Origin: an uncultured Staphylococcaceae bacterium | GTDB taxonomy: Bacteria > Bacillota_I > Bacilli_A > RFN20 > CAG-826 | Direction of reading: 5' to 3' | NCBI GenBank assembly: GCA_964386745.1 | Contig: CAYLSZ010000002.1 | Coordinates: 1,717 to 65,716 of the forward strand | Length of the DNA stretch: 64,000 bases | Part shown: one piece after another, positions 37,405-56,984 of the stretch | How the letters are laid out: every line of letters begins with the position of its first letter | Position numbering within the stretch: the stretch's first letter is position 1 | Program-made: the position numbers and the translations under genes | The notes under the pieces: model-generated | Told to the model about the DNA's origin: nothing | Databases searched by the model: none | Seen by the model: only the letters and a program-made list of their open reading frames with translations

Positions 37405-37508
37405 AATAATATATAACCACTTGTCAAATATTAATAAATCTAATTTTTGTTGCCAATAATTATTATCGCCTTTACAATGGCGCTATCTTTTTCATGGAGG
37501 TACTTTAT

Positions 37509-39890
37509 ATGAAAAAAAGAAAATTGCTTTTGCTTTTGCCACTTTTAGCCCTTGGGCTTGTTAGTTGCGAAGGCACTGAAGAGCCGGTTGTCGATCCCGA
37601 TCCGGTAGAGGAACCTGTCGATGACGATCCAGTAGTTGATGATGATCCTGTTATCGACGACGACCCTATTGTTGACGATGATCCAGTAATCGATGATGAC
37701 CCAATTGATGACGACGATCCTGTAGTCGATGATGACCCAGTTGGCGACGATCCTATTGATGAACCTGAAGTGACTAATCACGAACCAGCTATTGAAGCTT
37801 TAAAAGGTTTAGAATCGGTTGCTATCAAGGGCGCCTATTCTTCTGCAGCAACTTACTATAAGGACACAGATTACGAAGAAGAAGGTGCAAAGTATACATA
37901 TGAAACTTCTGGTATTTATACTAGTGAATACGTTTGGGCTTATCATAGTTATGAAGGAAATGGATATGAAAGCGAAACTGTTGTCGTTAATAAAGATGGT
38001 TTAGCTGCAACTGAATCTCTTAATAGACATAACGAAGTCGAATGGGAAATATTAACTGATGATTCTACTGGGGATCAAATTGTTTATACCGATAAATATT
38101 ATCAACCATTCACATATGTCACTACTGAAAACTCTACTTGGGATGAAAATACATCGACTCTTTCTATAGATACAGCTAGTGTCGAAGATGGGTTAACCTT
38201 ATTCGATGAACTCTTTAATGATGATATGTATGATCCTGTTACGTTGGTTATAGGATTTACTAGCGATCTCACTCCTTCTACCGTCACGTTCCACGATGAA
38301 TATGATTATTATTCAACTTGGTATACTAGAGAATACGAAGGTGAATTTGTTGAAGTTTCTGAACTTGAAGGAAACGTCACTCGCGCTACTCCTTATGATA
38401 CTTATGATGAAGCTTCTGGTCTTGAAGCTATTTTAGAAACCTTACAAAATGCAGAAAGTTATACCGTTAGGGTAAAAGGTTATGAAAATTATATTTACGC
38501 ATATCTTGATAAAGATGTCGGCGTTGTTTCATTCCACTATACTAGCATGGTATTAAAAGGAACTTTACAAGTAGATGATGATAGCTATGTCAATTTCGAA
38601 GATGTTTCTGGTAGTGCTGTTAATGCAACTAGCGGAAATATAAAAGGCAATGCTTACGATGCATATTTTGCTTCTGGATCTAGCGGAATGACTCCTGATT
38701 ACGATGTCGCTCCTGAAATGTTTAATTATGAAGGTGTAGATGATAGCGGCAATGCAGTCTATGGAATTAAATTAGAACTTGGAACATCCTTATATCCATA
38801 TCTTCTTCCAGCTTATCCAATGGCAGAAGAAACTTATGGAAGAGGCAGCATGGTAAATGGCTATAGAGAAGTCTACATTGGTGGCGATACATCTACTGAT
38901 TTAACTACTGTTTACTATCGTTTACAAATCTCAGGAACTACAACCAATCCTGAAATGACGTTTAGTTATGAAACTACTGATGGTGATATATACACAAATA
39001 CAATAGTTTTCAGTGATATTAATAGCACAACTATTCCATATACTAGCGTTAACTATCCATCTTCATGGAGTGGAATATTAGGCGATACTACTGACCTTGA
39101 TGCTATCTTAAACCAAGGCACATCAGGTAATTTAACTTTCGATAGAGATATTCCATATATCCTTTGGGAAGATAATGCTTGGACATTAGATCAAGTTTAT
39201 ACATCATCCACCGCTGTCGATTTATATTTATATGGTGGAAGTTATGACGAAGTTACTTCAATGCTTGATGAATATAAAACAACATTAACAACTGCTAGTT
39301 GGAGCATTGAAAATACTAATGAAAGCGATACAAATCAAACCGCAACACTTAAGAATTCAGACGGAACTATTGGTATAATGCTTGAAGCTCAAATATATAC
39401 ATATTACGGTAATACATACTACTTCTTCGATGTTTATGTATATGGCTTAACTGGTGATTATGAAACATTAATCACTAACTTAGCAGGCGCAGAAACTGTT
39501 GCTGAGTACGAAAGTGAATCACAAGCTTCGGTAGACTTAGAAACAATTGGTGATGTGTTCCCTTATGTCAATCCTTATTTAGGATTCTATAGTTATTTAG
39601 TCTTATATACTTCATCTGACTATTCAACATTCAATTGGGCTCTTACATATCAACTTCTCACTTCATCAAGTTCAATACAAACATATATCGACGAATTATA
39701 TGAAGAAGTAAATCCAATCTATACTGAAGCTGGTTGGACATGTGTTGAATCAACATATGGTAGTAGAACGATTTATACATGGAGTTGGACTGACGAAACA
39801 ACTGAAACTACTTACTCGCTTCAAGCATCATGGACAACTAATTATTATTACTACTGGGTCTTCTTAATGTTCTCTGCTGAAGCAGCATAA
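37509..39890 (+). CDS. large surface lipoprotein with an acidic DDDPV-repeat linker, function unknown
   Basis: Start at MKKRKLL (GGAGG upstream). Lipobox LGLVSC. 793 aa, Thr/Tyr/Asp-rich. Confidence 0.75.
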   Translation: MKKRKLLLLLPLLALGLVSCEGTEEPVVDPDPVEEPVDDDPVVDDDPVIDDDPIVDDDPVIDDDPIDDDDPVVDDDPVGDDPIDEPEVTNHEPAIEALKGLESVAIKGAYSSAATYYKDTDYEEEGAKYTYETSGIYTSEYVWAYHSYEGNGYESETVVVNKDGLAATESLNRHNEVEWEILTDDSTGDQIVYTDKYYQPFTYVTTENSTWDENTSTLSIDTASVEDGLTLFDELFNDDMYDPVTLVIGFTSDLTPSTVTFHDEYDYYSTWYTREYEGEFVEVSELEGNVTRATPYDTYDEASGLEAILETLQNAESYTVRVKGYENYIYAYLDKDVGVVSFHYTSMVLKGTLQVDDDSYVNFEDVSGSAVNATSGNIKGNAYDAYFASGSSGMTPDYDVAPEMFNYEGVDDSGNAVYGIKLELGTSLYPYLLPAYPMAEETYGRGSMVNGYREVYIGGDTSTDLTTVYYRLQISGTTTNPEMTFSYETTDGDIYTNTIVFSDINSTTIPYTSVNYPSSWSGILGDTTDLDAILNQGTSGNLTFDRDIPYILWEDNAWTLDQVYTSSTAVDLYLYGGSYDEVTSMLDEYKTTLTTASWSIENTNESDTNQTATLKNSDGTIGIMLEAQIYTYYGNTYYFFDVYVYGLTGDYETLITNLAGAETVAEYESESQASVDLETIGDVFPYVNPYLGFYSYLVLYTSSDYSTFNWALTYQLLTSSSSIQTYIDELYEEVNPIYTEAGWTCVESTYGSRTIYTWSWTDETTETTYSLQASWTTNYYYYWVFLMFSAEAA
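37585..37765 (+). repeat. tandem 18-bp (6-aa) coding repeat, about 8 units, P-V/I-x-D-D-D
   Basis: PVVDDD PVIDDD PIVDDD PVIDDD PIDDDD PVVDDD PVGDD, read from the translation and the DNA. Confidence 0.85.
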
Positions 39891-40016: not shown

Positions 40017-41600
40017 TTATTTTTTGGTCATTAAATCTCTGATATAAGCGATATCTTCTTCACCTAAACGAGGGAAAAGATTATTAAGTTTTGTAACCTT
40101 CTTTTCATTCAATAATTCAGGTTTTAAAACGTTATTATAATCGTTTTCTTCATCGCTAATTCCTAACGATTTAATAGCATCATTTGCCTTATTAACAAGG
40201 GTTGGTTTAAGCAAAATCGAAGCATTGAAAATAATATAAGAGAGAGTATTCATTACAACTTCTAGCTCGCTAGTTTTACCTTCTTTAGCTAAAGTCCAAG
40301 GAGCACTCGTTTCGATATATTTATTAGCTTTATTTAATAAATCCATAATAGCAATATGGGCTTCAGTAATCTTTAAATCAGCCATATTTTCGTTATAGAT
40401 ACTTATAGTTTTTTCTACTTCTTTTCTTAATTCTTTTGAAAGTTCAGCTTCATCACTTTCATTATAGTTAGGAATAACTCCATCAAAATATTTAATAATC
40501 ATCGAGGTAGTTCTACTAACTAAATTTCCATAATTATTAGCTAAATCTTGATTGATTCTTTCAACAAATTGTTCAGGAACAAATTGTCCATCTTGACCAA
40601 AAATTATTTCTCTAGCGTAATAATATCTAAGCGAATCTACTCCATATTTTTCGACTAATGGATATGGAGAAATAGTATTACCTTTAGATTTTGACATCTT
40701 ACCGTCTTTCATCATGAGTAACCCATGAACGAAGACTCTATCCGGATGACGAAGTCCTAATGCCGATAAAAATTGTGGCCAATATATAGCATGGAAACGA
40801 GTAATATCAGCACCAATTACATGAATAATTTCGCTTTCTTCATCTTCCCAATATTTTTTATATAAAGAATCGTCTTCACTTCTATAACCTAAAGCACTCA
40901 AATAGTTAATTAAAGCATCTAACCAAACATAAGCAACGTGCTTATCGTTTTCTAAAATAGGAACTCCCCAAGAAAATGTAGTTCTACTTACACATAAATC
41001 AGTAAGTCCTGGTTTAATAAAGTTATTTTCCATTTCGTGTTTACGACTAACTGGCGTAATCGAATTTTCTTTATTAAAAAAGGTATCAAGTTCTTTTAAA
41101 TATTTATTAGTTTTAAAGAAATAGCATTCTTCTTTTTCTTTTTGAACAGGTCGACCACAATCTGGACATAAATGACCTTCTAAAAGTTGCGATTCAGTCC
41201 AAAAAGATTCGCAAGGGGTACAATACCAACCTTCATACGATCCTAAATAGACGTCTTCTTGTTTTATGAAGTCACTAAATACACTTTGAACTACTTTAAT
41301 ATGTCTATCTTGAGTGGTTCTAATAAAATCGTCGTTAGTAAGTTCCATCGCTTTCCATAAATTTTGGAAATCTCCGGCGATCTCATCTACATATTGTTGA
41401 GGGGTTTTATTCGAGGCTTTGGCATTTTTTTCGATTTTCATTCCATGCTCATCAGTACCCGTAAGGAAAAAGCATTCTTCATGTCTATTTCTTCTAAATC
41501 TAGCATATATATCGCACATTGTTGAACAATATGCATGTCCGATATGTGGATTTCCACTTGGGTAATAAATTGGCGTAGTAATGTAAAATCTTTTCTTCAT
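40017..41600 (-). CDS. metG: methionine--tRNA ligase
   Basis: 527 aa. HIGH-type PHIGHAY and KMSKS. Zn knuckle CPDCG. Confidence 0.95.
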   Translation of the reverse strand: MKKRFYITTPIYYPSGNPHIGHAYCSTMCDIYARFRRNRHEECFFLTGTDEHGMKIEKNAKASNKTPQQYVDEIAGDFQNLWKAMELTNDDFIRTTQDRHIKVVQSVFSDFIKQEDVYLGSYEGWYCTPCESFWTESQLLEGHLCPDCGRPVQKEKEECYFFKTNKYLKELDTFFNKENSITPVSRKHEMENNFIKPGLTDLCVSRTTFSWGVPILENDKHVAYVWLDALINYLSALGYRSEDDSLYKKYWEDEESEIIHVIGADITRFHAIYWPQFLSALGLRHPDRVFVHGLLMMKDGKMSKSKGNTISPYPLVEKYGVDSLRYYYAREIIFGQDGQFVPEQFVERINQDLANNYGNLVSRTTSMIIKYFDGVIPNYNESDEAELSKELRKEVEKTISIYNENMADLKITEAHIAIMDLLNKANKYIETSAPWTLAKEGKTSELEVVMNTLSYIIFNASILLKPTLVNKANDAIKSLGISDEENDYNNVLKPELLNEKKVTKLNNLFPRLGEEDIAYIRDLMTKK

Positions 41601-41651
41601 AATTAACCTCTTTCAATATTATAAATATTAAACTTTTCTAATTAAAGAAAT

Positions 41652-41676
41652 AAAAACCTCTCAATTGAGAGGTTTG
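41652..41676 (-). terminator. terminator after rpmE
   Basis: AAACCTCTC-AATT-GAGAGGTTT with a T-run on the minus strand. Confidence 0.8.
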
Positions 41677-41686
41677 ATTTAGTTCA

Positions 41687-41896
41687 TTATTTAACGTCTC
41701 TTTTATATTTTCTATTGAAACGAGCAACTTGACCATCGTTTTGAACAAATCTTTGTTTGCCAGTATAGAATGGGTGGCAATTGCTACAAGTATCGACACG
41801 AATTTCTTTTAATGTTGATTCGGTTTCAAATGTTGTACCGCAGGTAACACAAGTCACTTTACACGTTTGATATTTTGGGTGAATTCCTTCTTTCAT
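41687..41896 (-). CDS. rpmE: 50S ribosomal protein L31 (Zn-ribbon type A)
   Basis: MKEGIHPKY...CxxC...[10 protein letters not shown]. Confidence 0.95.
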
Positions 41897-42041
41897 ATTC
41901 TTTACTCCTTCCGCCTTGATTTACTGTTTCTTCAATCAAAGAAAGCATGGTTAATTATAGTGAAATAAAGGCTATTAGACAAGTGTCAATTTTCGCATAA
42001 ATCGGCTATTTTCGATGCTTTATAATAGAAAATTACTTATC

Positions 42042-42686
42042 TCACTCCTCTTTATCAACATTATTTACATCATCAACATCTATCAAATCATTATTTTGAT
42101 TGGTTGATGTATTCATATTCTCAATAATTTCATTTAATGCTTCCATGTTTTGTAAATGTATTTTTCTATTTCGCTCTTTCTTTCCGATTCTATTAAAACC
42201 TCTATCAATCGCAATATTTATGAAAATCCAATATAAAATAGTCAACGGTAGAAAAATAACAAAATAATAAAGAGCAAAAACCCTTGCTCCATAACTGCCA
42301 TCTTCATAAACTTTAAAAGTTGTATTGAAATAAGCCGAGATACATTCACAAAAAATTAGTACGTAATTTATTGGATAAATTACCCAAAAATACCACCTTT
42401 TTTTAAATAATTTGTATTTATCAAAAACCCAGAATTGTTTTAAAAATAAAATAAGAGTAAGCGCTAAAAAAACTAATTCAATATAAAACACTGACCTAGC
42501 AACTATATGGTCAAAATTATATCCAACCATAGTTGCAAGAAAACCAATCGCCATCCCAAACGGAATAAATAAATTGTCGCGCATTACAACATAGCTTCTA
42601 GCTCTTGGATTTTCTATGTTGTAAATATTTTCAACATTTAAAAACTTCGTGTAAAAAGGACGTTTTTCTTTTTTAGAATTGTTCAT
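42042..42686 (-). CDS. 4-TM membrane protein, cassette family member P1
   Basis: 214 aa. Shares PFYTKF-N-EN, KYKLFKK--YFW and SAYFNTTF motifs and an acidic tail with 43871-44497, 44666-45334 and 45667-46380. The start lies inside the last 14 nt of the upstream gene. Confidence 0.7.
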   Translation of the reverse strand: MNNSKKEKRPFYTKFLNVENIYNIENPRARSYVVMRDNLFIPFGMAIGFLATMVGYNFDHIVARSVFYIELVFLALTLILFLKQFWVFDKYKLFKKRWYFWVIYPINYVLIFCECISAYFNTTFKVYEDGSYGARVFALYYFVIFLPLTILYWIFINIAIDRGFNRIGKKERNRKIHLQNMEALNEIIENMNTSTNQNNDLIDVDDVNNVDKEE

Positions 42687-43638
42687 TTACCCAATCCCGA
42701 TCGTACCAATGATATATTTTCCAGCCGATCCTATATCCTTTCTTTTGATAACCGCTAATATACACTCTTGTCATAACATAAAGAACGCTTAACACAAGAA
42801 CAGTAATAATCAATCCAAAGATAGCGCCCCAAATGTCACTAGTTGCAACTAATACAAAATCATCCCAAAAAGTTGCAAGGTGCGATTTAATAGTCTTAGC
42901 AACAACACTAAGTTCTATCGCTTGCGCAGGGAACATAGCTTTTAAAATTTGAATAATTGCAAGCGCATCTGCATAATAGGTTGCAACGTTATTAATAAAC
43001 GATGACAAAGTATTATAAAAAGATATGCACGTATCAGCATCAAATTCGAGTCCCAAGAATTTATAGTCATCAGATTTATAATTTATATTAACTGATGGTT
43101 CTATATCAGCAGATATCTCATAAATTGGTAAAAGATCTTCATCATCACTTGACGAAACATAACTACTATCTCCAGCTCTTGAATCATCGAATATTAAATA
43201 ACCTAAAGACTCATCATCTCCATCTTCTATAGGAGTGACTTTAGTTATGGTCTCATCAGTATTTATATCCCAGACACTAAAATCTCTTGTTATATCTAAA
43301 TCAATTAAACTTAAACTATTTGTTGCATAAATTAAATCTTCATCAATTACAGGATCGATTATTACATAAGAATCAATGCCAGTTGCTAATGCGCTTGCTA
43401 ATTCGCTATCGATAAGACCCAACTCTTGATTGAAATTCAATAAAGAAATTTTAAGCAAATCTTCTTGCTCTTCATCAGAAATTGATAAAACTTCTTCCGC
43501 ATCAAAATTTTGAGCATATTCACTGATTATCTCTTCAGAATTTTCATAAATATACTCTAACTTATTAGAAACCGTCACCTCTTGTAGACCACCCGATATT
43601 GAGGTTACGACTACGACAAAAAACGAGAACATTCCCAT
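42673..43638 (-). CDS. bitopic acidic protein (N-terminal and C-terminal TM), cassette partner P0, the only intact copy
   Basis: 321 aa. GGAGGTAGG RBS. N-terminus MGMFSFFVVVVTSISGG, Asp/Glu/Ser-rich middle, C-terminal TM plus the tail SGYQKKGYRIGWKIYHWYDRDWV. Confidence 0.65.
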   Translation of the reverse strand: MGMFSFFVVVVTSISGGLQEVTVSNKLEYIYENSEEIISEYAQNFDAEEVLSISDEEQEDLLKISLLNFNQELGLIDSELASALATGIDSYVIIDPVIDEDLIYATNSLSLIDLDITRDFSVWDINTDETITKVTPIEDGDDESLGYLIFDDSRAGDSSYVSSSDDEDLLPIYEISADIEPSVNINYKSDDYKFLGLEFDADTCISFYNTLSSFINNVATYYADALAIIQILKAMFPAQAIELSVVAKTIKSHLATFWDDFVLVATSDIWGAIFGLIITVLVLSVLYVMTRVYISGYQKKGYRIGWKIYHWYDRDWVNEQF

Positions 43639-43870
43639 ATATTCCTACCTCCTTATGTTAATTTCATTATAAGACGGAATTTAAAATTTTAAAGTAATTT
43701 TTAAAATTATTTTCGTATTCGAATTTTGTGTTGAACGATAAATAAAAACACTATCCCTACTAAATGAAACAAAGATTTCACAAAGGTCTGACTACATCAA
43801 AAACAATAGATTTTGTTACATTTTAATTGTCGCTTAACTCGAGTAAATATACCAATACAAAATTTAAAAC

Positions 43871-44497
43871 TTACTCCTCATCTATAAACTTCTTATCGTT
43901 ATAAATACCATTATCTTCATTCATAGACGCCGAGCAACTATCTTCGCTAGGAATTTCTACTCGCTTCTTCGCTTTTTCTAACTTATGCTCCTTGATAACG
44001 CTATCTTGAAAATACTTCAAGTGTGTATAGTGCATAAAAATTAGGTAAATAATTATTAATGGGAGGAATATAAATAAAAAATATACTGGGTTAATCTTAA
44101 CTTCAAATCCTTCATTCTCAAACGGGGTAACCACAGTATTAAAGCAAGCCGAAATAAGTTCACCGATTAATAAGACGTAATTGATTGAGTATATTAGCCA
44201 AAAATATTTTTCTTTCTTGAATAATTTATATTTTTTTATGAACCTATACTGCTTAACTAGTTGCCAAACCGAACGAAAAATTGAATATAAAATAAATACG
44301 AACATGCAAATAGTGAAAACAAGACCGAAATTAAATCCAACAATAGTTGCAACTAATCCGGCCCCATTAGCATAAATGACGAAAAATATCGCTCTCCACA
44401 CGAAACGATCTTTTTCTTTCGATGTAGCGATCTTATCGACATTCTCTACATTGATAATCTTGGCGTAAAAACGAGGCTTTTTAGCATCAGTCGTCAT
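43871..44497 (-). CDS. 4-TM membrane protein, cassette family member P2
   Basis: 208 aa paralogue. Its ATG overlaps the stop of the upstream stub (ATGA). Confidence 0.7.
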   Translation of the reverse strand: MTTDAKKPRFYAKIINVENVDKIATSKEKDRFVWRAIFFVIYANGAGLVATIVGFNFGLVFTICMFVFILYSIFRSVWQLVKQYRFIKKYKLFKKEKYFWLIYSINYVLLIGELISACFNTVVTPFENEGFEVKINPVYFLFIFLPLIIIYLIFMHYTHLKYFQDSVIKEHKLEKAKKRVEIPSEDSCSASMNEDNGIYNDKKFIDEE

Positions 44498-44607
44498 TCA
44501 CAAACCCATCTCCAATCAAGCAAACCATGAACTTCCCATCCAATTCTAAAACCTTTATTTTGATAACCGCATATAAACATATAAACAATATATAAAACCG
44601 GCTTCAT
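44494..44607 (-). pseudogene. C-terminal stub of a P0-type partner gene
   Basis: My translation MKPVLYIVYMFICGYQNKGFRIGWEVHGLLDWRWVCE is homologous to the P0 C-terminus. No RBS. Confidence 0.6.
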
Positions 44608-44665
44608 GTCATTTAAGGCAATCTTTATTTTTAACTCGCTCTAACAATGTTTGATAATAAAAAAC

Positions 44666-45334
44666 TCATTCCTCTTTATCTTTATCGGTAAAATCGTCGA
44701 TTCCTTTATCTTCTTCATCCTCTCTATAAAATGAGTTCATATCTTCGATAATTTCCTTATGCTCCTTAACCATCGCGGCATATTTCTTTTCTTTTTTTGT
44801 AGTCATTTCGCGAATGCCTTTATTCACTGTATATTCCAGTAAAATCAAATATAAAACTATTAATGGAATGAATATAAAAATATAGTAAAGAGGATTTATA
44901 TGCGTCGACCATTTACCGTTATCATAAATTTCAAAAGTCGTGTTAAAGTAGGCAGATACGCATATAGCTGCAAGCAATACATAATTTAATAAATATATAA
45001 ACCAAAAATATCTCTCTTTTTTAAATATTTTATATTTGTGTATCACTAAAAATTGCTTTACGAGTAATATCAGAGAGCCAATAACTAATAGAGCTTCAAC
45101 AACAAAAGTAGCTATAGCGTACGCATGTTCGAAATTAAATCCGATTGTGGTCGCAATAGCTCCGGCGAATTGAGCTAAAATCACGAAAAAAGAACCACGC
45201 AAAGGAATACGAAGTATTTTTTTATCGTCTTCCAAATTTAAAACATTCTCTTGGTTTATAAATTTAGTATATAAAGGTGGTTTTTCTTCCTTGTATTTGC
45301 TCATTTCTCTTTTTTTAACTTCCGTATTTAACAT
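44666..45334 (-). CDS. 4-TM membrane protein, cassette family member P3
   Basis: 222 aa paralogue. Comparison with the other paralogues suggests the real start may be MSKYKEEK at 45304. Confidence 0.7.
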   Translation of the reverse strand: MLNTEVKKREMSKYKEEKPPLYTKFINQENVLNLEDDKKILRIPLRGSFFVILAQFAGAIATTIGFNFEHAYAIATFVVEALLVIGSLILLVKQFLVIHKYKIFKKERYFWFIYLLNYVLLAAICVSAYFNTTFEIYDNGKWSTHINPLYYIFIFIPLIVLYLILLEYTVNKGIREMTTKKEKKYAAMVKEHKEIIEDMNSFYREDEEDKGIDDFTDKDKEE

Positions 45335-45514
45335 TTTCTCGACATATTGAGTATCGCAAAAAATATTAATATATCTACTTTTCCTCCTGTATTGATTAAA
45401 TTATAAAGTACAACAAATAATTGAAAAGGAAAAATATATTTTGCTAATTGTTTTTAAGCTAGCAAAAGATCTTATAACATCAATATAGTCGTCAATAGTT
45501 CACTTAATAGCATA

Positions 45515-45563
45515 TAAAATCCGCTGAATTTCAGAAAAAACCCTGCAGATCTCAATTATTTTT
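45515..45563 (+). repeat. CTGCAG-core dispersed repeat, full-length copy
   Basis: TAAAATCCGCTGAATTTCAGAAAAAACCCTGCAGATCTCAATTATTTTT. Confidence 0.85.
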
Positions 45564-45666
45564 ATAAAAAAACGAAACTTTTAAAACTCAAAGTTCCTCT
45601 ATTTATATGGAAGTTTTTATTAAGTTCAATAATGAATTGGAACTAATATAAATTAGAAGATTACTC

Positions 45667-46380
45667 TTAATCGTTCGTATTTACATTGTCTTCTTCGAAT
45701 GGTTTGTCGCTAGTCGAATTTGGATCAAACTCGTTTACATCTATATCATCTACGATTGGCTCTTCTTTATTGATTTCTCCTTTTGCTTTATTTTCTTTTA
45801 AAGCTTCTAACACATTTATTCGGATACACTTTATATACATTATGTCTAGGAAAAACACATACAAACACAACAGCGGTATAAAAACAAATAAATAATAACC
45901 ACTCCAAATACGGACCTCAAACCCATTGTCTAAAATAGAAAAAGTCGTATTAAAATAAGCGGAAACGCACGTTCCTATTGCTAGTACATAATTAATTATG
46001 TGTATCCCCCAAAAATAGCTACTTTTTTTAAAAACATTATATCTTTTCATTATGAAATAATGTCTTATCAATAAATATATCGAGGCCACAAAAAGGATAA
46101 TTTGCACGCAAAACATATATATCGTAAAGCTATGTTCAAAGCCATAACCACTAAAAGTGGCAATAAGTCCAGGCGCATGCGCAAAGGCTAGCATAAATAA
46201 TATTCTCCAAAAACAATTGCATATCTTCTTAGGTTTTTCGATCTTAGCAACGTTTTCTTCATTGATTATTTTTGTATAAAATGGCTCTTTTTTAATAGTC
46301 TGTTTGCTCACAAACCCGTCTCCAATCAAGTATGCTATAAACTTCCCGACCAATACGGAATCCTTTTTGCTTATAGCCAC
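45667..46380 (-). CDS. 4-TM membrane protein, cassette family member P4
   Basis: Paralogue. The first 23 codons of the track ORF read the partner stub out of frame. A GTG at 46311 gives (M)SKQTIKKEPFYTKI, which matches the paralogue N-termini. Confidence 0.65.
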   Translation of the reverse strand: MAISKKDSVLVGKFIAYLIGDGFVSKQTIKKEPFYTKIINEENVAKIEKPKKICNCFWRILFMLAFAHAPGLIATFSGYGFEHSFTIYMFCVQIILFVASIYLLIRHYFIMKRYNVFKKSSYFWGIHIINYVLAIGTCVSAYFNTTFSILDNGFEVRIWSGYYLFVFIPLLCLYVFFLDIMYIKCIRINVLEALKENKAKGEINKEEPIVDDIDVNEFDPNSTSDKPFEEDNVNTND

Positions 46381-46479
46381 AATATATCATATATCCGATA
46401 AAGGCTAATCCAAGAATAATAGCGCATGGCCACCAGAAATACACGTGGATACTATTACTAAAATTGAGGTGAAATTCAT
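46292..46479 (-). pseudogene. internally deleted, frameshifted P0-type partner gene
   Basis: GGAGG RBS plus ATG 46479 gives MNFTSILVIVSTCISGG (compare P0 MGMFSFFVVVVTSISGG), then a stop. The next frame gives WWPCAIILGLAFIGYMIYCGYKQKGFRIGREVYSILDWRRVCEQTDY (compare the P0 C-terminus). Confidence 0.6.
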
Positions 46480-46645
46480 AAATATCCTCCTTTGTATTTT
46501 GCTTTATTATAAAGTAAGAAGAAAAATTTAAAACAATTTTATAAAAACCCTAATTTTCAAAGCATCTATCAACATAATTTTTATAATCACTAGTAAAATA
46601 AATATAGATGATTCACATAATAAATCATCGCTATTGGAGGAATAT

Positions 46646-47434
46646 ATGAACGTTGATTTAAAAGGCCAAACCGCTGTTGTCGTAGGTGCTGGTCGCGGAA
46701 TTGGTGAAGCTATTGTTACTGAAATCGCTAAAGCCGGTGCAATAGTTTACGTTGCAGATATTTTACTTGATAACGCTAAAGAAGTTATCGCTAAACTCGA
46801 AAAAGATAACCTCAAAGGTGTCGCCGTTAAATGCGATGTTAGTAATTTAAAAGAAGTCGATGAAGTCTTAGCTAAAGCCGAAAAAGAAACCGGTCGCTTA
46901 GATATCGTCGTAAATAGTGCTGGTATAGTCACTTTGAATTCCTTCTTAGATACTACCCAAGAAGAAATCGAAAGTTTATATAAAGTCAATTTATTAGGTA
47001 CAAGTCACGTCCTTCAATGCGCAATTAAACGTATGCAAAAATATAATCATGGAAAGATTGTTTGTATCTCTTCATTTGCTGGTCGCCACGCCTTAAAAGA
47101 AGGCTTCAGTTATTATGGAATGACTAAAGCTGCCGTTAACTATTTGACTCAAGCCGCTGCTTATACAGGCGCCGATTATAATATTAATGTTAACGCTATC
47201 TGCCCTGGTATAATTCGTACCAAAATGTGGGAAAAGATCTTAGATAATTATGTCGAACATGGCCAAGATAGAGAAGAATCTTGGAAAGAAAGTTTGAAAC
47301 ACTTCATTCCACTAGCTAGAGGTGATCAAAAAGTCGAAGATATCGCTTACGCTGTCTTATTCTTATGTTCTGAATACGCTGATCACATCACAGGCCAAGC
47401 CTTAAATGTCGATGGCGGCGCTTCGATGGATTAA
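46646..47434 (+). CDS. SDR family oxidoreductase
   Basis: Start at MNVDLKG (GGAGG upstream). GAGRGIG, NSAG and YxxxK (YGMTKAA) motifs. Confidence 0.85.
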   Translation: MNVDLKGQTAVVVGAGRGIGEAIVTEIAKAGAIVYVADILLDNAKEVIAKLEKDNLKGVAVKCDVSNLKEVDEVLAKAEKETGRLDIVVNSAGIVTLNSFLDTTQEEIESLYKVNLLGTSHVLQCAIKRMQKYNHGKIVCISSFAGRHALKEGFSYYGMTKAAVNYLTQAAAYTGADYNINVNAICPGIIRTKMWEKILDNYVEHGQDREESWKESLKHFIPLARGDQKVEDIAYAVLFLCSEYADHITGQALNVDGGASMD

Positions 47435-47571: not shown

Positions 47572-48876
47572 TTAAATATCTTCCTTTAAACAGAACACGG
47601 CATATAAAGGAACTGACTTAATATTATTTTCAAAACCAAAGTTTTTACTTGAGACTCTTATTGAATATTTAGGCGAATACTTATTGGCAAATACAGACAA
47701 ACTTTTCGCTTTAACATTATCAGCATACTTACATTCAATAGGAACAACTTCATCATCAAGTTGAATAACAAAGTCTACTTCTGCGCTATTTCTCGATTCC
47801 CAATAATATGGATAGATTCCTATTGAAACTAATTGTTGCATTATATAGTTTTCAGCTAAAGTGCCTTTAGCATCACTAGATAAATTGTTAGTTAAAATAT
47901 TTTTTACACTAATATTTAAACTATCCGTAAGTAAACCAACATCGTTCATATACATTTTAAAAGACAAAAAATCTTCATGTATCTTTAAAGGTAATGTTCC
48001 TTCGGTAACCTTGTTACATTTATAAACGACGCCGGCCGTTTTAAGCCATTCAATAGCGTCATCATAGGTTCTAGCTCTTGCACCACTTCCAATAAGACTA
48101 TATAAAAATTTCTTATTTTCTTTTGCTAGCTGTGAAGGGATAGTATTATACGCAGCAATAATTCGATCGCTTTCTTTTAAGTCGACATATTTAGTCATAT
48201 CGCCACGATAACTACTTAAAATTTCATCTTGTATGATTTTTACATAACCATAATCTTTATTATTAATGAAAGATTGGACTGCCGAAGGCATGCCACCGAC
48301 AATTAAATATTTATAATAGTACTCTAAAATCGTGTTATGAACGACACTTGGTAAAACACTAACACTTCTATATGCTTCTTTAATTTTAACGATAAGTTCA
48401 TATTGGTCCATAGCCATTAAAAATTCTTCAAAGTTTAATGGATACATAGTCACCATATTTACTTTTCCTACAGGGAATGAATAATGTCCTCTATTTACCG
48501 CTAAACCAAGTAAACTTCCGGCAGCTATTATATGGACGTCACGACGCTCCTCACAAAAATATTTAAGCGAAGTTAAAGCCTTCTCGCATTCTTGTATTTC
48601 ATCAAATACGATAAGCGTTTTATCTTTTAAAACTTTTTGATTAGTAACACTTTCGATTTCGTCTATGATTCTATTAGGAACTAAGTCAGGGTCAAAAATC
48701 GCTTTCAAACCAGCGTTACCTTCAAAATTAAGATAGATAACGTTATCATAATTTGCTAATCCAAATTCATATATAGAGTAAGTTTTACCAACTTGTCTAG
48801 CTCCATATACCAACAAAGGCTTTCTTTCAGGATCATTTTTCCACTTTAGTAAATAGTTTCCAATTAGTCTCTTCAT
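47572..48876 (-). CDS. AAA+ ATPase (AAA_14) with a DUF4143 / PD-(D/E)xK-like C-terminal domain
   Basis: Walker A GARQVGKTY, Walker B LIVFDEIQ. C-terminal EVDFV...PIECK nuclease-like motif. Start chosen at MKRLIGNY; the track ORF begins at a TTG at 48912. Confidence 0.75.
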   Translation of the reverse strand: MKRLIGNYLLKWKNDPERKPLLVYGARQVGKTYSIYEFGLANYDNVIYLNFEGNAGLKAIFDPDLVPNRIIDEIESVTNQKVLKDKTLIVFDEIQECEKALTSLKYFCEERRDVHIIAAGSLLGLAVNRGHYSFPVGKVNMVTMYPLNFEEFLMAMDQYELIVKIKEAYRSVSVLPSVVHNTILEYYYKYLIVGGMPSAVQSFINNKDYGYVKIIQDEILSSYRGDMTKYVDLKESDRIIAAYNTIPSQLAKENKKFLYSLIGSGARARTYDDAIEWLKTAGVVYKCNKVTEGTLPLKIHEDFLSFKMYMNDVGLLTDSLNISVKNILTNNLSSDAKGTLAENYIMQQLVSIGIYPYYWESRNSAEVDFVIQLDDEVVPIECKYADNVKAKSLSVFANKYSPKYSIRVSSKNFGFENNIKSVPLYAVFCLKEDI

Positions 48877-48914
48877 ATTGAATAATTTACTAGAAAAAGA
48901 GAGGAAAATCAATA

Positions 48915-48948: not shown

Positions 48949-49311
48949 ATTCAGTTTTTATACCCAATTTATTAATGAAACATTAAAAAAAGGTTTATGC
49001 TCATGTAACGTTATAAATAGTTCCTCAAGGTAATAAATAATCGAAAACAACAACACAAAATTTACTATAAAACGCGTTAAATGGCCTTTTAAAAAAATGT
49101 AGTAACAATCGGAACTTTTTAAGCAAAATCCGCAACATTTCGGGATCAAAACCAGCAACATTTCGATTTACCGGTTTTACCTACCACCCACAAACGATTA
49201 AAACCTACATTTTGAACGCCTTTTTCATTATTAATAGTTTCCGTTCCGAGTGTTTTCACTTTTTTAATCCGCAAGATTTGCACTTTTCATTCCGAAGGAT
49301 TTTAAACAAAA

Positions 49312-49366
49312 CGGGGCAAAATGCCCCGAAAATCTCAAGCAAAACGGGGCATTTTGTTGCCTTTTT
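49312..49366 (+). promoter_or_regulatory. three-arm alternative hairpin (CGGGGCA / TGCCCCG / CGGGGCA) plus U-tract, in the leader of the 49407-50756 gene
   Basis: Arm 1 is 49312-49318, arm 2 is 49322-49328 and arm 3 is 49345-49351, followed by TTTTGTTGCCTTTTT. The 2:3 pairing extends to 11 bp (AAAATGCCCCG/CGGGGCATTTT). Confidence 0.45.
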
Positions 49367-49406
49367 CTCTAATTTACTTTATTATAAAAGCAATGGAGGA
49401 ATAGTA

Positions 49407-50756
49407 ATGCACCGTTTTTGCGAAAATAATATTGTTGATTGGTTAAATAATAGTAAAGGCGCGCTATTAGTTAGTGGCGCTAGGCAAGTAGGAAAGACCT
49501 ATATCATTCGTAATGTTTTACAAGAGCACAATATTCATTATTTAGAAATCAATTTCTTTGATCGTCCTGACATTCTTCAAACTCTTAAAAATATTACTGA
49601 CATCAACGATTTTGTTGACCGTTTGCGTTTGTATTCTTCTACTCCTTTAATTGAAAAAGAGAGCGTAATTTTCTTTGACGAGATACAAGAATTTCCTGAG
49701 ATCATTACTAAGATAAAATTCCTTGTAGATAATGGCACATTTAGATATATCCTTAGCGGTTCTTTATTAGGGTTAGAAATTAAAAATATACGCTCAATAC
49801 CTGTTGGATATTATCAAGAACTCAAAATGTATCCGATGAGCTTCTTGGAATTTTGTAAAGCTCAAAATATTAATAAGAAAGTATTCGCGCATTTAGAGGA
49901 TTGTTATAACAACAAACAACCCGTCGATAAAATTATCCACGAAAAGATGCTTAACTTGTTCACTCAATATTTAGTTGTTGGCGGTATGCCTAGAGTTGTT
50001 CAAACTTTCTTAGATACCTCAAATCTCGTCAAAGTCGACGAGGAAGCTAGAAACATTATCTACCAATATAAAGCTGACTTTTCTAAATATGAAAGCGACG
50101 ATAAAAAACTAAGACTATTAGCTATTTATGACAACATACCTTTACAACTCAATAAACAAAATCTTCGTTTCCAATTCACATACTTAAATAAAGAATTGAA
50201 ATTTAATCGCTACGAAAATTCATTTTTATGGCTAACTGATGCCGGAGTCGTTTATCCTTGCTATATCGCTAACGAGATTAAAACTCCTTTAATCATTTCA
50301 AAGGAAAAGAATACCTTTAAACTATTTATGAATGATGTTGGATTATTATTAAGTACATTCCCATTTTCTGTACGCCAAGGATTTATCGATTTTTCACAAC
50401 AATATCTTAATGTAAATCTTGGCGCTATATATGAAAATTGCGTCATGCAAGAATTAGTCGCTAATTCCTTAACACCTTACTACTATAAAAGCAAACGAAT
50501 AGGTGAAATTGATTTTGTTTTAGAGATTGATGGCAAGATGTTAGCTCTTGAAGTTAAATCTGGTCACGATATTAAAAATCACAAATCGTTAGATAAACTT
50601 CAAAAACAAACTGAATATAAAATCGATCAATATATTGTTCTTTCAAAAGAAAACCTTTTTGAAAAAGATAACATCCTATATCTTCCTATCTATATGTGTG
50701 AGTTTATTAAGGAAACAAAACCCGAAAGTGTTATAATTCCTAAGGTTGAAATATAA
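49407..50756 (+). CDS. AAA+ ATPase (AAA_14) with a DUF4143 / PD-(D/E)xK-like C-terminal domain
   Basis: Start at MHRFCENN (GGAGGAATAGTA-ATG). GARQVGKTY, VIFFDEIQ. C-terminal EIDFV...ALEVK. Confidence 0.8.
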   Translation: MHRFCENNIVDWLNNSKGALLVSGARQVGKTYIIRNVLQEHNIHYLEINFFDRPDILQTLKNITDINDFVDRLRLYSSTPLIEKESVIFFDEIQEFPEIITKIKFLVDNGTFRYILSGSLLGLEIKNIRSIPVGYYQELKMYPMSFLEFCKAQNINKKVFAHLEDCYNNKQPVDKIIHEKMLNLFTQYLVVGGMPRVVQTFLDTSNLVKVDEEARNIIYQYKADFSKYESDDKKLRLLAIYDNIPLQLNKQNLRFQFTYLNKELKFNRYENSFLWLTDAGVVYPCYIANEIKTPLIISKEKNTFKLFMNDVGLLLSTFPFSVRQGFIDFSQQYLNVNLGAIYENCVMQELVANSLTPYYYKSKRIGEIDFVLEIDGKMLALEVKSGHDIKNHKSLDKLQKQTEYKIDQYIVLSKENLFEKDNILYLPIYMCEFIKETKPESVIIPKVEI

Positions 50757-53462: not shown

Positions 53463-56400
53463 TTAAGCGACTGTGAGAGTGAGGGTATAAATACCGAGCC
53501 AGATATATTCACTGTTATAAACAGTGGACGAACCGCCATCACTATTGATGAAATATCCATAATTATATGTACCTGTGCTGAAACTACGTGTTCCAGAGGC
53601 ACTAGAACTATAACTTGCCCAAATCTTATCACCGATTAAACTAGAAAGTTCTTCATTATAGAATCCGACAAAACCCCAAGCAGATGAATCACCATCACTA
53701 TAATGAGCTACATAATCAATGTTAATATCATCTTCAATTACTTCAAACTCAAAATATAAACCAAGATTACCAAGATCGGTTTGAGCTGAAGCAGTTCCGC
53801 CATCTAATGCAGCATATCCTTCATTGTTTAACCAGAATTGATAAGTTTCACTTACATTAGTCCATCCATAATATGTTGGGCTCCAGCTAGTGTCGTCACT
53901 ACCACCATCAAATCCACCATCATTTGTAAGGGTGGTTGAATAGACAGTGATAGTAAATGTTTGACTTTCACTTTCATTATATGTAGCAGTAACAGTTACA
54001 CTTTTTTCGGCACCATAATCAGTTAAACCTAAACTAAATTTAATTGTATTACCACTTACAGTGTAATCAGTATTTTCAGTTAAACTATCAATTGTATAAG
54101 TAACGTCCTTATTAGTAGTAAATGTTACTGAGTGAGTATCATAAACTTGAGTTTTATCAACATCAATCAACCATGGATCTTCTTGTTTATAAACAGTGAT
54201 GGTATGAGTATCAGTATTTGTTTCTTCACCCGAAGTTTTACTTGTAGCAGTGACGGTGATTGTATCCCCTGACTCAGCTTCACTACTAATTTCAATAGTA
54301 GCAGTTGTATCAGTATAAGATTTAATACTTGCTTTACTTTCACTATCGATTGTCCAACTAACATCTTTATTAGCAGTTAATGTAACTTCTTGACCAGGTT
54401 CAGCAGTTTCTGCGCCAGTAATTTCAACAGGGGTAATGTTTTTGGTTAAAGAAATGTCATCAAGATCGAACCACATTTCATCACCACTCATATCACTAAT
54501 AGTCATTTGGAAATAGTATTGGGTACCAGTTTCTAATTCAACATCGAGAGTGACATATCTATTAGAAACATCTTCTTGCCATCCTGGAATACTGCTTGTT
54601 GTAGCTACAGCTTCACCATCAGCTTTATAAATGCCAACAGTTCCAGTACCTGTACCAGTAATCATTAAACTAAATTCAAGTGTATATGTAGCACTTTCTT
54701 CAACAGTAAATCTATTAGCTTGTTGTAATTTATATGTTTCTTCTGTACTACCTGCTAAGTAACCAGAGAATGAATAATCACCTGCACTTGGGTTGTCATC
54801 CCATTTAAACGTCATGCCACTAATAGTTTCATGAGTCCAATATGTACTAATTAAACCACCGGCAGCACCAGATGTTTCAAATGAACCATCTTGAATATAG
54901 ACAGAATCATCAATTGTATATTGTTCATCATCAATAGTGATATCAACATCACTTGTCACACCACAAGCTTCACTTCTTACGCTAATTGTATGGGTAGCAG
55001 TTGATGTATTTTCACCATAAGTAGCAGTAATAGTAACGTCTTCACTAGTTACATTAACACCAGTTACTGTACATGTATTACCATCATATTCAATACTTAC
55101 ATCATTACTATTAGTAGACCATGTAACGTCTTCACTATAGTTGCTCTTTAAGGTAATAGAATCACCTTGTTGAACGTGATGCAAACCATCGATTGTAATT
55201 TGAGTATCGGTACCATCAGATTTATAGATACCAAATTCATCAAATACGGCATAAGCCCAACCACTAGATAAGTTATCTGCAGGATCAAAATAGATACCAA
55301 TTGTATATGTTGAACCTTCAGTTAAGCTAACTGTTGTTGATTGAATACCATCAGTATCGGTTGTTGAAGCATCACTAGCATTAATTCTAACTAATTCATT
55401 ATTACTAGTATCAGTGATTGCAATGTAGAGATAATCCATATAGGTAGATCCATCGCTACCAATAACGAATGAATATTCAAAATCATAGGTTGTAGTTTCA
55501 TTAACAGTAAATTCTTGAGTATAAGAATATGTGTCGGTAACGGTATTTGTATCTAAATACAAGGCAGTTCCATCGATTGTTGCCCAACCATTAGCATAGT
55601 ACCAAGGATAATCAGAATTATCTCCAACTAATGTCCAAGTTTCAGCATCGCCAACACCAGTACATTCATCTTTATAATCGAATCCACCATCTCTAATATA
55701 GTTAGTTCTAATGGTTTCAGCAGGAACTTGATATCCTTCAAGAATTTGATAGTTACTAACAAATCCCCATGGGGTAACGCCGCCTTCAGATACATACATA
55801 TCACCATCGTAAGAGATATTTAATTCGATATCGACGCTGCTGACATCTTCTCCTGTAGTAAATGTATGGTAATAAGTTTTATATGCGCCACCATAGCTTC
55901 CTGCAGTTGGAGTTAAAACATCTCCGTCAACACTAATAGAAATATTATTATAGACACCATAGGAAAGATCTATGGTGATTGTATATTGGGTATTAGCTTG
56001 TAAACCTGAAGTTAAGGTAGCTTTTAAATTAAGTACTGGAAGATCTTCTTCATCAGTAATATCATTTTCTACCCATATATTAAGAGCATATCCGCTTGTT
56101 GCGGCTGAATATGTTTCTAAGACCATTTCGCTTATTCTATTTGAATTACTTGTATCAAAATAGTTAAGGAGTTTATCTTTATCAGCAAATGTACCTGCAA
56201 CATTGAAGTTATCTAAATCAGTTAAGTTAGATGTAACAGCAATTGTAACAGTGGCGTAATTATCTTCGCCTAATGTTTCAGTTGCTTTATAAACTTTAAC
56301 GCCCATCGTAACGCCAGCTTTTAATGGAGTAATTGTAGTTCCATCGTAGCTATAGTATTCATTTTCATATGGATCAAGCATTAAAGCAACTTCAGTAACG

Positions 56401-56984
56401 CCTTCATCCCAAGTGATGTAATTACTTAAAGTAACACCGCTAGCTTGATTTTCTAAGTTGATAGTAATGATTGATGATGTAAGAGAAAAACCAAGGCCTT
56501 CTTCTTCGATAACTGTATCGCCGCCTTCATCATCTCCACCTTCGTCACTACCGCCTCCGACGTCTCCGCTGCCAACATCTTCATTATCGTCATCATCGTC
56601 ATCATCATTACCAATATCAGGATCTTCAGTTGATGTACTACCATCTTGTTCAAAAACGATAGTAATAACGTTTTCGCCAGCTACGAGGGTATAGTTCCAT
56701 TCGGTTGCACTACTTTGTGTGCCGTTAACAGAAAAAACCTTGTATCCATCATTAGGCGTAATCTTAATAACGATTGCGTCTCCTTCTTCTAAGGAAGTCG
56801 AATCATCAATTATTGTTCCATCACTAGTTGTTGCATAAGCCGAACCTTGTGAGGAATCATAACTAAGGGTTAAAGTAGCTTGTGTTTCACTAACATCATC
56901 ACAACCAGTTAAGGTAGCTACTGTTAATCCCCCAAATGTCAATGCTCCAAGTAATGTGAGCATTGGTATTTTTGATTTTTTCAT
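53463..56984 (-). CDS. giant surface lipoprotein with three (CBM-like jelly-roll plus Ig-like) modules
   Basis: 1173 aa. Lipobox TLTGC. Poly-Asp linker. Three GGFD/GSFE-initiated modules alternate with three about 55-aa Ig-like segments ending in TITV/TISV. Confidence 0.7.
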   Translation of the reverse strand: MKKSKIPMLTLLGALTFGGLTVATLTGCDDVSETQATLTLSYDSSQGSAYATTSDGTIIDDSTSLEEGDAIVIKITPNDGYKVFSVNGTQSSATEWNYTLVAGENVITIVFEQDGSTSTEDPDIGNDDDDDDDNEDVGSGDVGGGSDEGGDDEGGDTVIEEEGLGFSLTSSIITINLENQASGVTLSNYITWDEGVTEVALMLDPYENEYYSYDGTTITPLKAGVTMGVKVYKATETLGEDNYATVTIAVTSNLTDLDNFNVAGTFADKDKLLNYFDTSNSNRISEMVLETYSAATSGYALNIWVENDITDEEDLPVLNLKATLTSGLQANTQYTITIDLSYGVYNNISISVDGDVLTPTAGSYGGAYKTYYHTFTTGEDVSSVDIELNISYDGDMYVSEGGVTPWGFVSNYQILEGYQVPAETIRTNYIRDGGFDYKDECTGVGDAETWTLVGDNSDYPWYYANGWATIDGTALYLDTNTVTDTYSYTQEFTVNETTTYDFEYSFVIGSDGSTYMDYLYIAITDTSNNELVRINASDASTTDTDGIQSTTVSLTEGSTYTIGIYFDPADNLSSGWAYAVFDEFGIYKSDGTDTQITIDGLHHVQQGDSITLKSNYSEDVTWSTNSNDVSIEYDGNTCTVTGVNVTSEDVTITATYGENTSTATHTISVRSEACGVTSDVDITIDDEQYTIDDSVYIQDGSFETSGAAGGLISTYWTHETISGMTFKWDDNPSAGDYSFSGYLAGSTEETYKLQQANRFTVEESATYTLEFSLMITGTGTGTVGIYKADGEAVATTSSIPGWQEDVSNRYVTLDVELETGTQYYFQMTISDMSGDEMWFDLDDISLTKNITPVEITGAETAEPGQEVTLTANKDVSWTIDSESKASIKSYTDTTATIEISSEAESGDTITVTATSKTSGEETNTDTHTITVYKQEDPWLIDVDKTQVYDTHSVTFTTNKDVTYTIDSLTENTDYTVSGNTIKFSLGLTDYGAEKSVTVTATYNESESQTFTITVYSTTLTNDGGFDGGSDDTSWSPTYYGWTNVSETYQFWLNNEGYAALDGGTASAQTDLGNLGLYFEFEVIEDDINIDYVAHYSDGDSSAWGFVGFYNEELSSLIGDKIWASYSSSASGTRSFSTGTYNYGYFINSDGGSSTVYNSEYIWLGIYTLTLTVA

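Follow-up and report, generated by a model that had tools for sequence, protein, structure and literature searches.

Organization of the locus

We analysed a stretch of 64,000 nucleotides (nt) from an uncultured bacterium of the order RFN20 (NCBI GenBank assembly GCA_964386745.1, contig CAYLSZ010000002.1, positions 1,717 to 65,716 of the forward strand), the whole of which is called the window below. Its minus strand carries, at 42042-46311, an array of four head-to-tail genes for paralogous proteins with four transmembrane (TM) segments, lodged between rpmE-metG and an SDR gene. One of these 4-TM genes is preceded by an intact gene for a second membrane protein, its partner; the other three stand behind remnants of such partners. 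Both proteins constitute new families, and among related strains the C-terminal part of the partner is exchanged together with the 4-TM gene.

The window is low-GC chromosomal DNA (GC ~32%), and the flanks of the array are chromosomal housekeeping genes: rpmE, metG, the SDR gene and glycoside hydrolases. Its methionyl-tRNA synthetase (MetRS) is at most 72% identical to that of any GTDB species representative, the closest relatives being those of 'Candidatus Onthovivens' and further uncultured Bacilli of the gut, which NCBI labels as Mollicutes or Bacillales. The features of the array, with their lengths in amino acids (aa) and the open reading frames (ORFs) or alignments on which they rest, are the following.

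40017-41896: rpmE-metG, one border of the array
42042-42686, minus strand: 4-TM gene of type A, 214 aa (ORF, paralogue alignment), the sole copy with an intact cognate partner
42673-43638, minus strand: intact partner gene of type A, 321 aa (ORF), overlapping the 214-aa gene by 14 nt
43648-43693, minus strand: promoter-like site of unit 1, TTTAAA-16-TATAAT (43693-43666), with a ribosome-binding site (RBS) AAGGAGG (43654-43648)
43871-44497, minus strand: 4-TM gene of type E, 208 aa, orphan; its ATG overlaps the TGA of the preceding stub (ATGA)
44494-44607, minus strand: 5'-truncated partner remnant, the last ~35 codons, with the end of the TM helix and the tail CGYQNKGFRIGWEVHGLLDWRWVCE (partner profile)
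44666-45304, minus strand: 4-TM gene of type F, orphan, 212 aa from ATG 45304; the mechanical ORF (222 aa) extends to 45334
45335-45427, minus strand: relic of a deleted partner, with a promoter-like sequence (45427-45400), an orphan AGGAGG (45383-45388) and ~45 nt of degenerate coding remnant
45512-45575, minus strand: terminator-like hairpin and U run, 3' of the type-B 4-TM gene (-16.4 kcal/mol, z=-3.9)
45667-46311, minus strand: 4-TM gene of type B, orphan in the window strain, 214 aa from GTG 46311; the mechanical ORF (237 aa) extends to 46380
46292-46479, minus strand: type-B partner pseudogene, its first 17 codons (MNFTSILVIVSTCISGG) fused, in a different frame, to the last ~45
46486-46533, minus strand: promoter-like region of unit 4, with TATAAT (46511-46506) and RBS AGGAGG (46491-46486) (repeat D10, alignment)
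46634-47434: SDR gene, the other border of the array

An earlier note, made from the letters of this DNA, had described four paralogous 4-TM ORFs with shared motifs, and its coordinates are right: a full-length alignment of the four proteins shows 30-39% identity and 36 invariant positions, among them those of the quoted motifs PFYTKF-N-EN, KYKLFKK--YFW and SAYFNTTF. The lengths of 214 and 208 aa stand. The starts of the 222-aa and 237-aa ORFs do not, having been moved by family alignments to ATG 45304 (protein beginning MSKYKEEKPP..) and GTG 46311 (protein beginning (M)SKQTIKKEPFYTK..); the surplus N-terminal residues are partner remnant read through in another frame.

That the type-A gene alone follows an intact 321-aa partner, with a 14-nt overlap, is borne out by the ORF coordinates. 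The partner begins with an uncharged hydrophobic segment (residues 1-19), after which residues 21-200 are extremely acidic, with 46 D+E against 7 K+R. From about residue 201 three long helices are predicted, the earlier ones amphipathic and the last a TM helix (271-289) with a GxxxG motif. An aromatic and basic tail, GYQKKGYRIGWKIYHWYD(W)DW, closes the protein, (W) standing for a CGG codon. Homologues in the contigs L001, L002, L090 and L083 are 84%, 32%, 33% and 21% identical to it.

The hairpin at 45512-45575, also recovered as the 70-nt repeat D5, is one of 11 window copies of a dispersed element. With a terminator-like structure after the 4-TM gene of unit 4, the array looks like several transcription units rather than one operon.

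Remnants of lost partner genes

A code in which TGA is read as tryptophan could have produced the stubs as an artefact; it was rejected, metG and 49 other long ORFs being intact with translation table 11. Long ORFs make up 89% of the window, with TAA used as stop 35 times, TAG 9 times and TGA 6 times.

The segments upstream of the type-E and type-B genes had been taken for remnants of the partner. A profile of the partner, from which the sister-strain sequence had been left out, was run on each of the 2369 stop-to-stop frames in the window and returned both claimed stubs and only these, at 44497-44640 (E=1.1e-6) and 46295-46549 (E=6.4e-6), the next best frame having E=0.44. Once the sister strain was added to the profile, the two stubs matched with E=6e-11 and 1.6e-15, and an N-terminal remnant was matched at 46408-46503 (E=1.5e-3).

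The type-B remnant had been called internally deleted, which is proved by an intact allele on the sister-strain contig L002 (Logan SRR7039263), 94-96% identical to the window in nucleotides. The intact 322-aa gene of L002 (117-1085) agrees with the window remnant in its first 17 and last ~45 codons; the remnant lacks L002 nt 167-971 (~0.8 kb) and 27 nt more. Its two halves lie in different frames and it is thus a pseudogene. As for the stub at 44494-44607, its L002 copy is altered at conserved positions: TGG has become CGT, with arginine at a conserved tryptophan, and TGT has become TAC, with tyrosine at the cysteine of the ..VCE ending. These changes suggest decay.

Upstream of the type-F gene, the orphan AGGAGG noticed earlier is present, 12 nt 3' of the promoter-like ACTTTATAAT. 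This stretch can be aligned with promoter and RBS of the partner in unit 4 (repeat D10), as well as with the upstream regions in L002 and L090, and the relic is without a usable start codon. Since what precedes this AGGAGG resembles the promoter of the neighbouring unit, a fourth partner, now almost wholly deleted, once stood there. All four 4-TM genes of the window are intact, and partners were lost by three different routes.

Array composition in related strains

Three haplotypes were seen to their left end, all ending at rpmE-metG. Their units, in brackets, are as follows.

Window: [deleted B + B][F][stub + E][A + A]
L002: [B + B][F][stub + E]
L090: [C + C][N-truncated F]

Each of the three contains exactly one intact partner, accompanied by one to three orphan 4-TM genes. 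Copy number of the pair varies among relatives, as had been envisaged: the arrays of the window, L002 and L090 all differ. The statement that three of four partners have decayed is accurate for the window strain and fails as a property of the locus, the type-B 4-TM gene of L002 being preceded by its intact 322-aa partner.

The window has an additional 1845-nt unit (42000-43844) that L002 lacks, comprising the 321-aa and 214-aa genes with their promoter. At its junctions lie 3' ends of 4-TM genes that are homologous to each other (..GAGGAGTAAG and ..GAGGAGTGAG). An A-type pair adjoining rpmE also occurs in L001 (ENA), with 84-85% protein identity to that of the window (84% for the partner, 85% for the 4-TM protein). 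L090 and L091 carry a 316-aa partner, then a 4-TM gene of type P0010, an N-truncated F-type copy and rpmE; the type-E gene is absent from L090.

The comparison of the L002 and L090 partners reveals an exchange of modules. Over the N-terminal ~215 residues they are 82% identical, with 85-95% in the first 120 alignment columns; after a conserved ETCIAFYN motif, identity falls to 31% in the last ~110 residues. Nucleotide similarity between the two contigs is lost over exactly the partner C-terminus and the 4-TM gene (L090 1065-2022). In contigs L088 and L089, one more C-terminus of the partner (the fifth) goes with one more 4-TM type (P0009, the sixth), so that closely related contigs, several of them from the single run series SRR7039256-63, hold at least six 4-TM types and five C-terminal types of partner. 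Each C-terminal type goes with its own 4-TM type: A with the 214-aa protein, B with the '237'-aa protein, C with P0010, D with P0009, and that of L083 with P0083. Two traits of polymorphic toxins (PMC3482391) are found here, namely a constant N-terminal part with a recombining C-terminal part, in the L002 and L090 partners, and a downstream gene that co-varies with the C-terminus, in the 4-TM type proper to each partner type.

The orphan 4-TM genes are under purifying selection. Compared with their L002 orthologues (protein identity of 92% for type E and 96% for types F and B), their ratios of nonsynonymous to synonymous substitution rates (dN/dS) are 0.11 for B, 0.11 for F and 0.20 for E, next to 0.04 for metG. 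The intact pair evolves faster, with dN/dS of 0.24 for the type-A 4-TM gene and, in comparison with L001, 0.33 for the 321-aa partner gene.

We tentatively read the locus as a polymorphic effector/immunity-like membrane module, or one of an identity determinant and its cognate binder, with orphan immunity genes and with specificity residing in the membrane; we give this reading somewhat less than an even chance. The earlier note had described a conserved junction with the second gene retained and the first in decay, an anatomy that is right and that the related strains bear out further, and had likened the array to effector/immunity or surface-variation cassettes. The first half of the analogy is strengthened by the module swap, the single intact partner of each haplotype seen to its left end, the purifying selection and the gain or loss of units at homologous gene ends, and the second half is weakened, the exposed part being the conserved one.

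Surface variation deserves to be spelled out nonetheless: as in wall-less bacteria, the partner would be an exposed antigen or adhesin and the array a set of alternative copies. The export-like N-terminus and large acidic exposed region of the partner would suit this role, the host is among the reduced, Mollicutes-like gut Bacilli, and both copy number and intactness differ by strain. Yet between the L002 and L090 alleles it is the exposed acidic part that stays constant (82-95%) and the membrane-proximal and membrane-spanning part that varies (31%), which disfavours the idea. Moreover, the silent 'cassettes' would be intact genes of the other protein, the 4-TM one, and not partial antigen copies. 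The lipobox cysteine is not conserved in partners, being absent from the 321-aa protein and its orthologue, and neither an invertible promoter nor a homopolymeric switch was seen, repeat searches having given only paralogy and the terminator element. Altogether, we consider surface variation very unlikely.

Structure of the 4-TM protein and family assignment

The type-A 4-TM protein was modelled with AlphaFold2 (AF2) from a 60-sequence alignment, with a predicted local distance difference test score (pLDDT) of 94. In the model, N-terminal cytoplasmic helices lead into TM1 (27-54) and TM2 (61-90), followed by a basic cytoplasmic loop, TM3, an outer (extracellular) beta-hairpin (122-136) and TM4, which runs into a long cytoplasmic C-terminal helix. 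Among the six array types, conservation is seen in the cytoplasmic motifs and in TM3 (46-61% identity), and variation in TM1 at 29%, TM2 at 24%, the hairpin on the outer side at 27% and the C-terminal helix at 15%.

Foldseek searches of this model against the PDB and BFVD gave noise resembling G protein-coupled receptors, with no E below 0.15, and no match covering most of the protein has a template-modelling score (TM-score) above 0.32. The earlier remark that no family or catalytic motif is recognisable holds in Pfam, NCBIfam, PADLOC, PHROGs and PDB sequence profiles. In Pfam the partner has no match at E<=1; PHROGs yielded no match, and nine proteins run against PADLOC-DB v2, which includes Kiwa KwaA/KwaB, gave one at chance level (E=0.021, 12 bits). 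Assignments to known families (such as PIG-P, MAG1210, SUR7 and KCNE2) were discarded as chance-level matches. The partner and the 4-TM protein are two new families.

The wider family and a distant pair

Run in full against 1.84 billion representatives, HMMER retrieved 94 clusters of 4-TM proteins (50% identity) at E<=1e-3; word-indexed searches of 5.8 billion protein clusters returned 2-5 proteins each, and it took HMMER to reveal the family. Neither family was found in 80 metG-flanking loci of GTDB species representatives (tblastn and two hidden Markov models), nor by a direct pattern scan of genome contigs. A first metagenome scan found no family loci, and a second one seven short loci with solo members only. 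Most members have the motifs FYxKFxNEEN, GYNF, KYxxFKK, FTT and NPxYY. Several members are twofold or threefold fusions: in L099 (156-3304), adjacent genes of 584 aa (threefold) and 371 aa (twofold) encode five tandem 4-TM domains. L099 belongs to the same assembly (CAZJPX01) as the metG relative L072.

A distant pair occurs in contigs L083 and L084, where a 21%-identical 4-TM gene follows a gene for a 333- or 326-aa protein with a 20-nt overlap. The upstream protein is a full-length homologue of the partner (21%, pairwise E=3e-11) and keeps the N-terminal segment, a CxxxYN motif and a QKGYxxG..W tail. Judged from the sequences, the pair of partner and 4-TM protein is an evolutionary unit older than the window species, because the same order with an overlapping junction recurs in this second lineage. 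Directly 5' of the distant pair stand JetA, JetB and JetC genes of Wadjet/Mks-like type (L083 1614-6884, L084 1628-6898). No JetD lies within 8 kb in either contig. The Wadjet link was for that reason not taken as evidence, and the genes probably encode an Mks-type condensin.

The breadth of the family brings up the strongest rival to the effector/immunity-like reading. The 4-TM protein could be an autonomous core, such as a small channel, a scaffold or an envelope-maintenance oligomer, with the partner as an optional accessory or regulatory subunit confined to two lineages; the array would then be a paralogue expansion and partner loss a sign of dispensability. Most of the ~94 clusters consist of ~170-aa solo proteins, without the acidic tail and without an upstream partner. 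The cytoplasmic FYxKFxNEEN motif and KYxxFKK loop are kept throughout, the fusions suggest side-by-side assembly of domains, and the orphans are under purifying selection. This explanation leaves aside, however, the joint exchange of the partner C-terminal module and the 4-TM gene next to a constant partner N-terminal part, the presence of exactly one intact partner in all three haplotypes seen to their left end, and the coexistence of paralogues of 30-40% identity whose differences lie chiefly in TM1, in TM2 and in the outer hairpin. We regard it as rather unlikely.

The neighbours of some family members raise another possibility: an anti-phage or superinfection-exclusion membrane system, in which 4-TM paralogues would block or abort different phages and the partner would act as surface sensor or decoy. 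A solo member lies beside a PvuRts1I-like/SRA nuclease (L094), another after RmuC and NERD genes and ~5.4 kb 5' of a RhuM/Fic gene (L096), a third near integrase and type I S-subunit genes (L092), and the L083 member after the JetA/B/C-like genes; two AAA_14/DUF4143 ATPase genes are near the window array. Diversifying tandem membrane paralogues are, besides, plausible as exclusion proteins. Such neighbourhood evidence is anecdotal, coming from five loci, and the Jet genes without JetD may belong to an MksFEB-type condensin. No PADLOC or PHROG model matches. Searches of 50,697 phage records (tblastn), 72,556 plasmids and IMG/VR gave no match, which speaks against phage defence and also led us to reject a mobile-element origin. 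Nor does an anti-phage function give any reason for the co-swap of partner C-terminus and 4-TM gene, and we find it improbable.

A possible effector/immunity-like mechanism

In the effector/immunity-like reading, the partner would have three parts: a hydrophobic N-terminus for export or anchoring, an exposed region of strong acidity, and a C-terminal module that combines amphipathic helices with a single TM helix, rich in small residues, and a short tail, aromatic and basic, in the cytoplasm. The 4-TM protein, whose start codon falls within the final 14-20 nt of the partner gene, would bind this C-terminal module within the membrane and neutralise or control it, its specificity stemming from the variable TM1-TM2 hairpin, outer beta-hairpin and C-terminal helix. 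New modules of partner C-terminus and 4-TM gene would arrive by recombination in the conserved partner N-terminal part or at the 3' ends of 4-TM genes, likewise conserved, and the displaced partner would be lost through deletion or truncation. Its 4-TM gene may be kept as a protection against relatives bearing that partner type, with one active pair and a set of orphan 'immunity' genes as the end state. Physical pairing, toxicity or antagonism, delivery and protection are what we infer from the pattern of exchange and retention.

Several observations weigh against this reading. No toxin, trafficking or immunity domain was found in either protein with Pfam, NCBIfam, PADLOC, PHROGs or PDB sequence profiles. 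The partner contains no recognisable delivery module (LXG, WXG, RHS/YD, filamentous haemagglutinin repeats, PAAR or MafB-N), and no secretion-system gene was found among the window ORFs scanned, which were 45 of the 56 with 100 aa or more. With its predicted TM anchor and cytoplasmic tail, the partner looks membrane-resident rather than secreted, which leaves its delivery route unexplained; an AF2 model of it from a 4-row alignment was unusable (pLDDT 36). The stubs retain only ~35-50 C-terminal codons, whereas classical orphan toxin cassettes keep the whole C-terminal module. Finally, the solo 4-TM proteins, with their strongly conserved cytoplasmic motifs and their unrelated, heterogeneous neighbours, fit an autonomous function at least as naturally.

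A bolder version, which we consider doubtful, is that the locus encodes a hitherto unrecognised system by which genome-reduced gut Bacilli (order RFN20) antagonise other bacteria or recognise kin, and which dispenses with a dedicated secretion machine. A Sec-exported, membrane-inserting protein would be recognised inside the bilayer, its TM module facing the cognate 4-TM protein, and the ~170-aa family, fusions included, would form a new membrane-immunity superfamily whose fold has no solved relative. Should the locus be an effector/immunity or identity system, it would offer a first handle on competition and kin recognition in uncultured genome-reduced gut Bacilli, and it would add a pair with membrane-embedded specificity, a single TM module set against a 4-TM protein without structural neighbour. 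Read conservatively, it provides two new protein families and a clean natural case of cassette turnover at a fixed rpmE-SDR site.

Comparison with known systems

Among the closest parallels is TspA/TsaI of Staphylococcus aureus, a membrane-depolarising LXG toxin of the type VIIb secretion system (T7SSb) and its membrane-bound immunity protein; tsaI occurs in strings of 2-16 non-identical copies, and recombination between such tandem immunity paralogues has been described (PMC9484751). Shared with the array are a polymorphic, membrane-active C-terminal part of the upstream protein and a downstream polytopic membrane protein present as tandem diverged paralogues in strain-dependent number. Unlike TspA, the array partner is without an LXG/WXG domain and seems to stay TM-anchored, and no T7SS genes, among them any EssC/FtsK-like gene, were found among the window ORFs scanned. 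Each 4-TM gene of the array, furthermore, has or had its own upstream partner with a start-inside-stop junction. The 4-TM proteins match no Pfam family and hence none that holds TsaI. An LXG domain, TsaI-family immunity and EssC, the marks of a TspA/TsaI-type system, are thus all absent from the array proteins and the window ORFs scanned.

In Vibrio cholerae clusters for type VI secretion (the T6SS), displacement of an effector leaves behind immunity genes and 3' effector remnants (PMC5361080). These orphan arrays, together with the orphan C-terminus/immunity cassettes of Rhs and contact-dependent inhibition (CDI) systems (cited in PMC5361080), resemble the present locus: a constant 5' region is joined to a variable 3' region with a cognate downstream gene, the old effector is displaced with its immunity gene kept and 3' remnants left, and closely related strains carry different arrays. 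They differ from it in that the order of the array is not fixed here: the intact pair closes the array in the window and opens it in L002. Partner remnants in the array are also either internal deletions or very short, at 35-50 codons; it has no linked delivery machinery, and both its proteins are of unknown families. T6SS- or T7SS-type weaponry was found neither among the window ORFs scanned nor in the related contigs examined. The indel junctions at homologous 3' ends of 4-TM genes match both the recombination between paralogues described for tsaI (PMC9484751) and the effector displacement of V. cholerae (PMC5361080).

Homogeneous polyimmunity loci, as defined by Zhang et al. (2012, PMC3482391), have neither toxin genes nor cassettes in between. 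The array is similar in its tandem, same-orientation, distant paralogues of one small family with strain-dependent copy number, and the fusions of 4-TM domains in other genomes, such as the five domains in two adjacent L099 genes, are reminiscent of polyimmunity proteins. In contrast, the copies of the array are separated by partner genes or by what is left of them, and the 4-TM family is an integral membrane one rather than a soluble Imm or SUKH-type domain.

IdsD and IdsE of Proteus mirabilis are a polymorphic membrane-associated pair whose variable regions set cognate binding, and exemplify a system of 'identity' in place of killing; a T6SS delivers IdsD. We know of no sequence relationship between them and the array proteins, nor of a comparable tandem orphan array.

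CGG codons at conserved tryptophan positions

CGG is rare in the window: long ORFs contain this codon 6 times and TGG 188 times. Within the partner family, it occupies conserved tryptophan positions: at 42699 in the 321-aa gene, and at 46343-46345 and 46313-46315 in the unit-4 remnant, where both codons align with W in the paralogues. The window and L001 orthologues of the partner show a reciprocal TGG/CGG exchange at two conserved tryptophan positions, and CGG is also seen at tryptophan positions in the L001 and L002 partner tails. By these alignments, CGG appears to encode tryptophan in the window organism. The alignments are in line with a reassignment of CGG to tryptophan that has been published for a clade of RFN20 Bacilli and for Onthovivens (PMC8629427, PMC13092985). 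In the window, no tRNA with anticodon CCG was found, the only tRNA-Trp being that with CCA at 23192-23265.

If CGG is so read, the conserved partner tail becomes G-Y-x-x-K-G-[YF]-R-I-G-W-(6-7 residues)-D-W-x-W-V, and ORF boundaries are unaffected. As these codons lie in the conserved tail and appear to stand for tryptophan, they need recoding for expression work.

Other features of the window

Just 5' of rpmE, a match to the L31-Firmicutes ribosomal-protein leader lies at 41905-41941 on the minus strand (E=9e-4), with 32.0 bits against a gathering threshold of 33.3. Past the SDR gene at the other border, the two AAA_14/DUF4143 ATPase genes are arranged divergently, at 47572-48912 (minus strand) and 49212-50756 (plus strand). 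A DDE transposase gene is located at 24359-26101. The 1173-aa ORF at 53463-56984 (minus strand), without Pfam match, adjoins a GH53 galactanase gene and ABC sugar-transporter genes.

Two kilobases from the array, the plus strand encodes a 798-aa lipoprotein (37494-39890) with an N-terminal repeat region rich in D, P and V and without Pfam match. A homologue of it (33%, E=1e-53) occurs at L094 3639-5903, directly 5' of a solo 4-TM member on an unrelated contig; this proximity may be a coincidence or a recurrent association.

The dispersed element to which the array hairpin belongs is ~50 nt long, with a 19-nt core, AGAAAAAACCCTGCAGATC, present in 11 copies in the window against 0.01 expected. 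The cores start at 771, 7854, 12379, 15998, 19325, 22729, 35435, 37369, 45533, 47475 and 51546. Three copies (771, 7854 and 35435) are within ORFs; the remaining 8 of the 11 are intergenic beside a gene end, often between convergent genes. Because it folds as a hairpin followed by a U run, the element may be a conserved, possibly bidirectional, terminator or one akin to repetitive extragenic palindromic (REP) elements.

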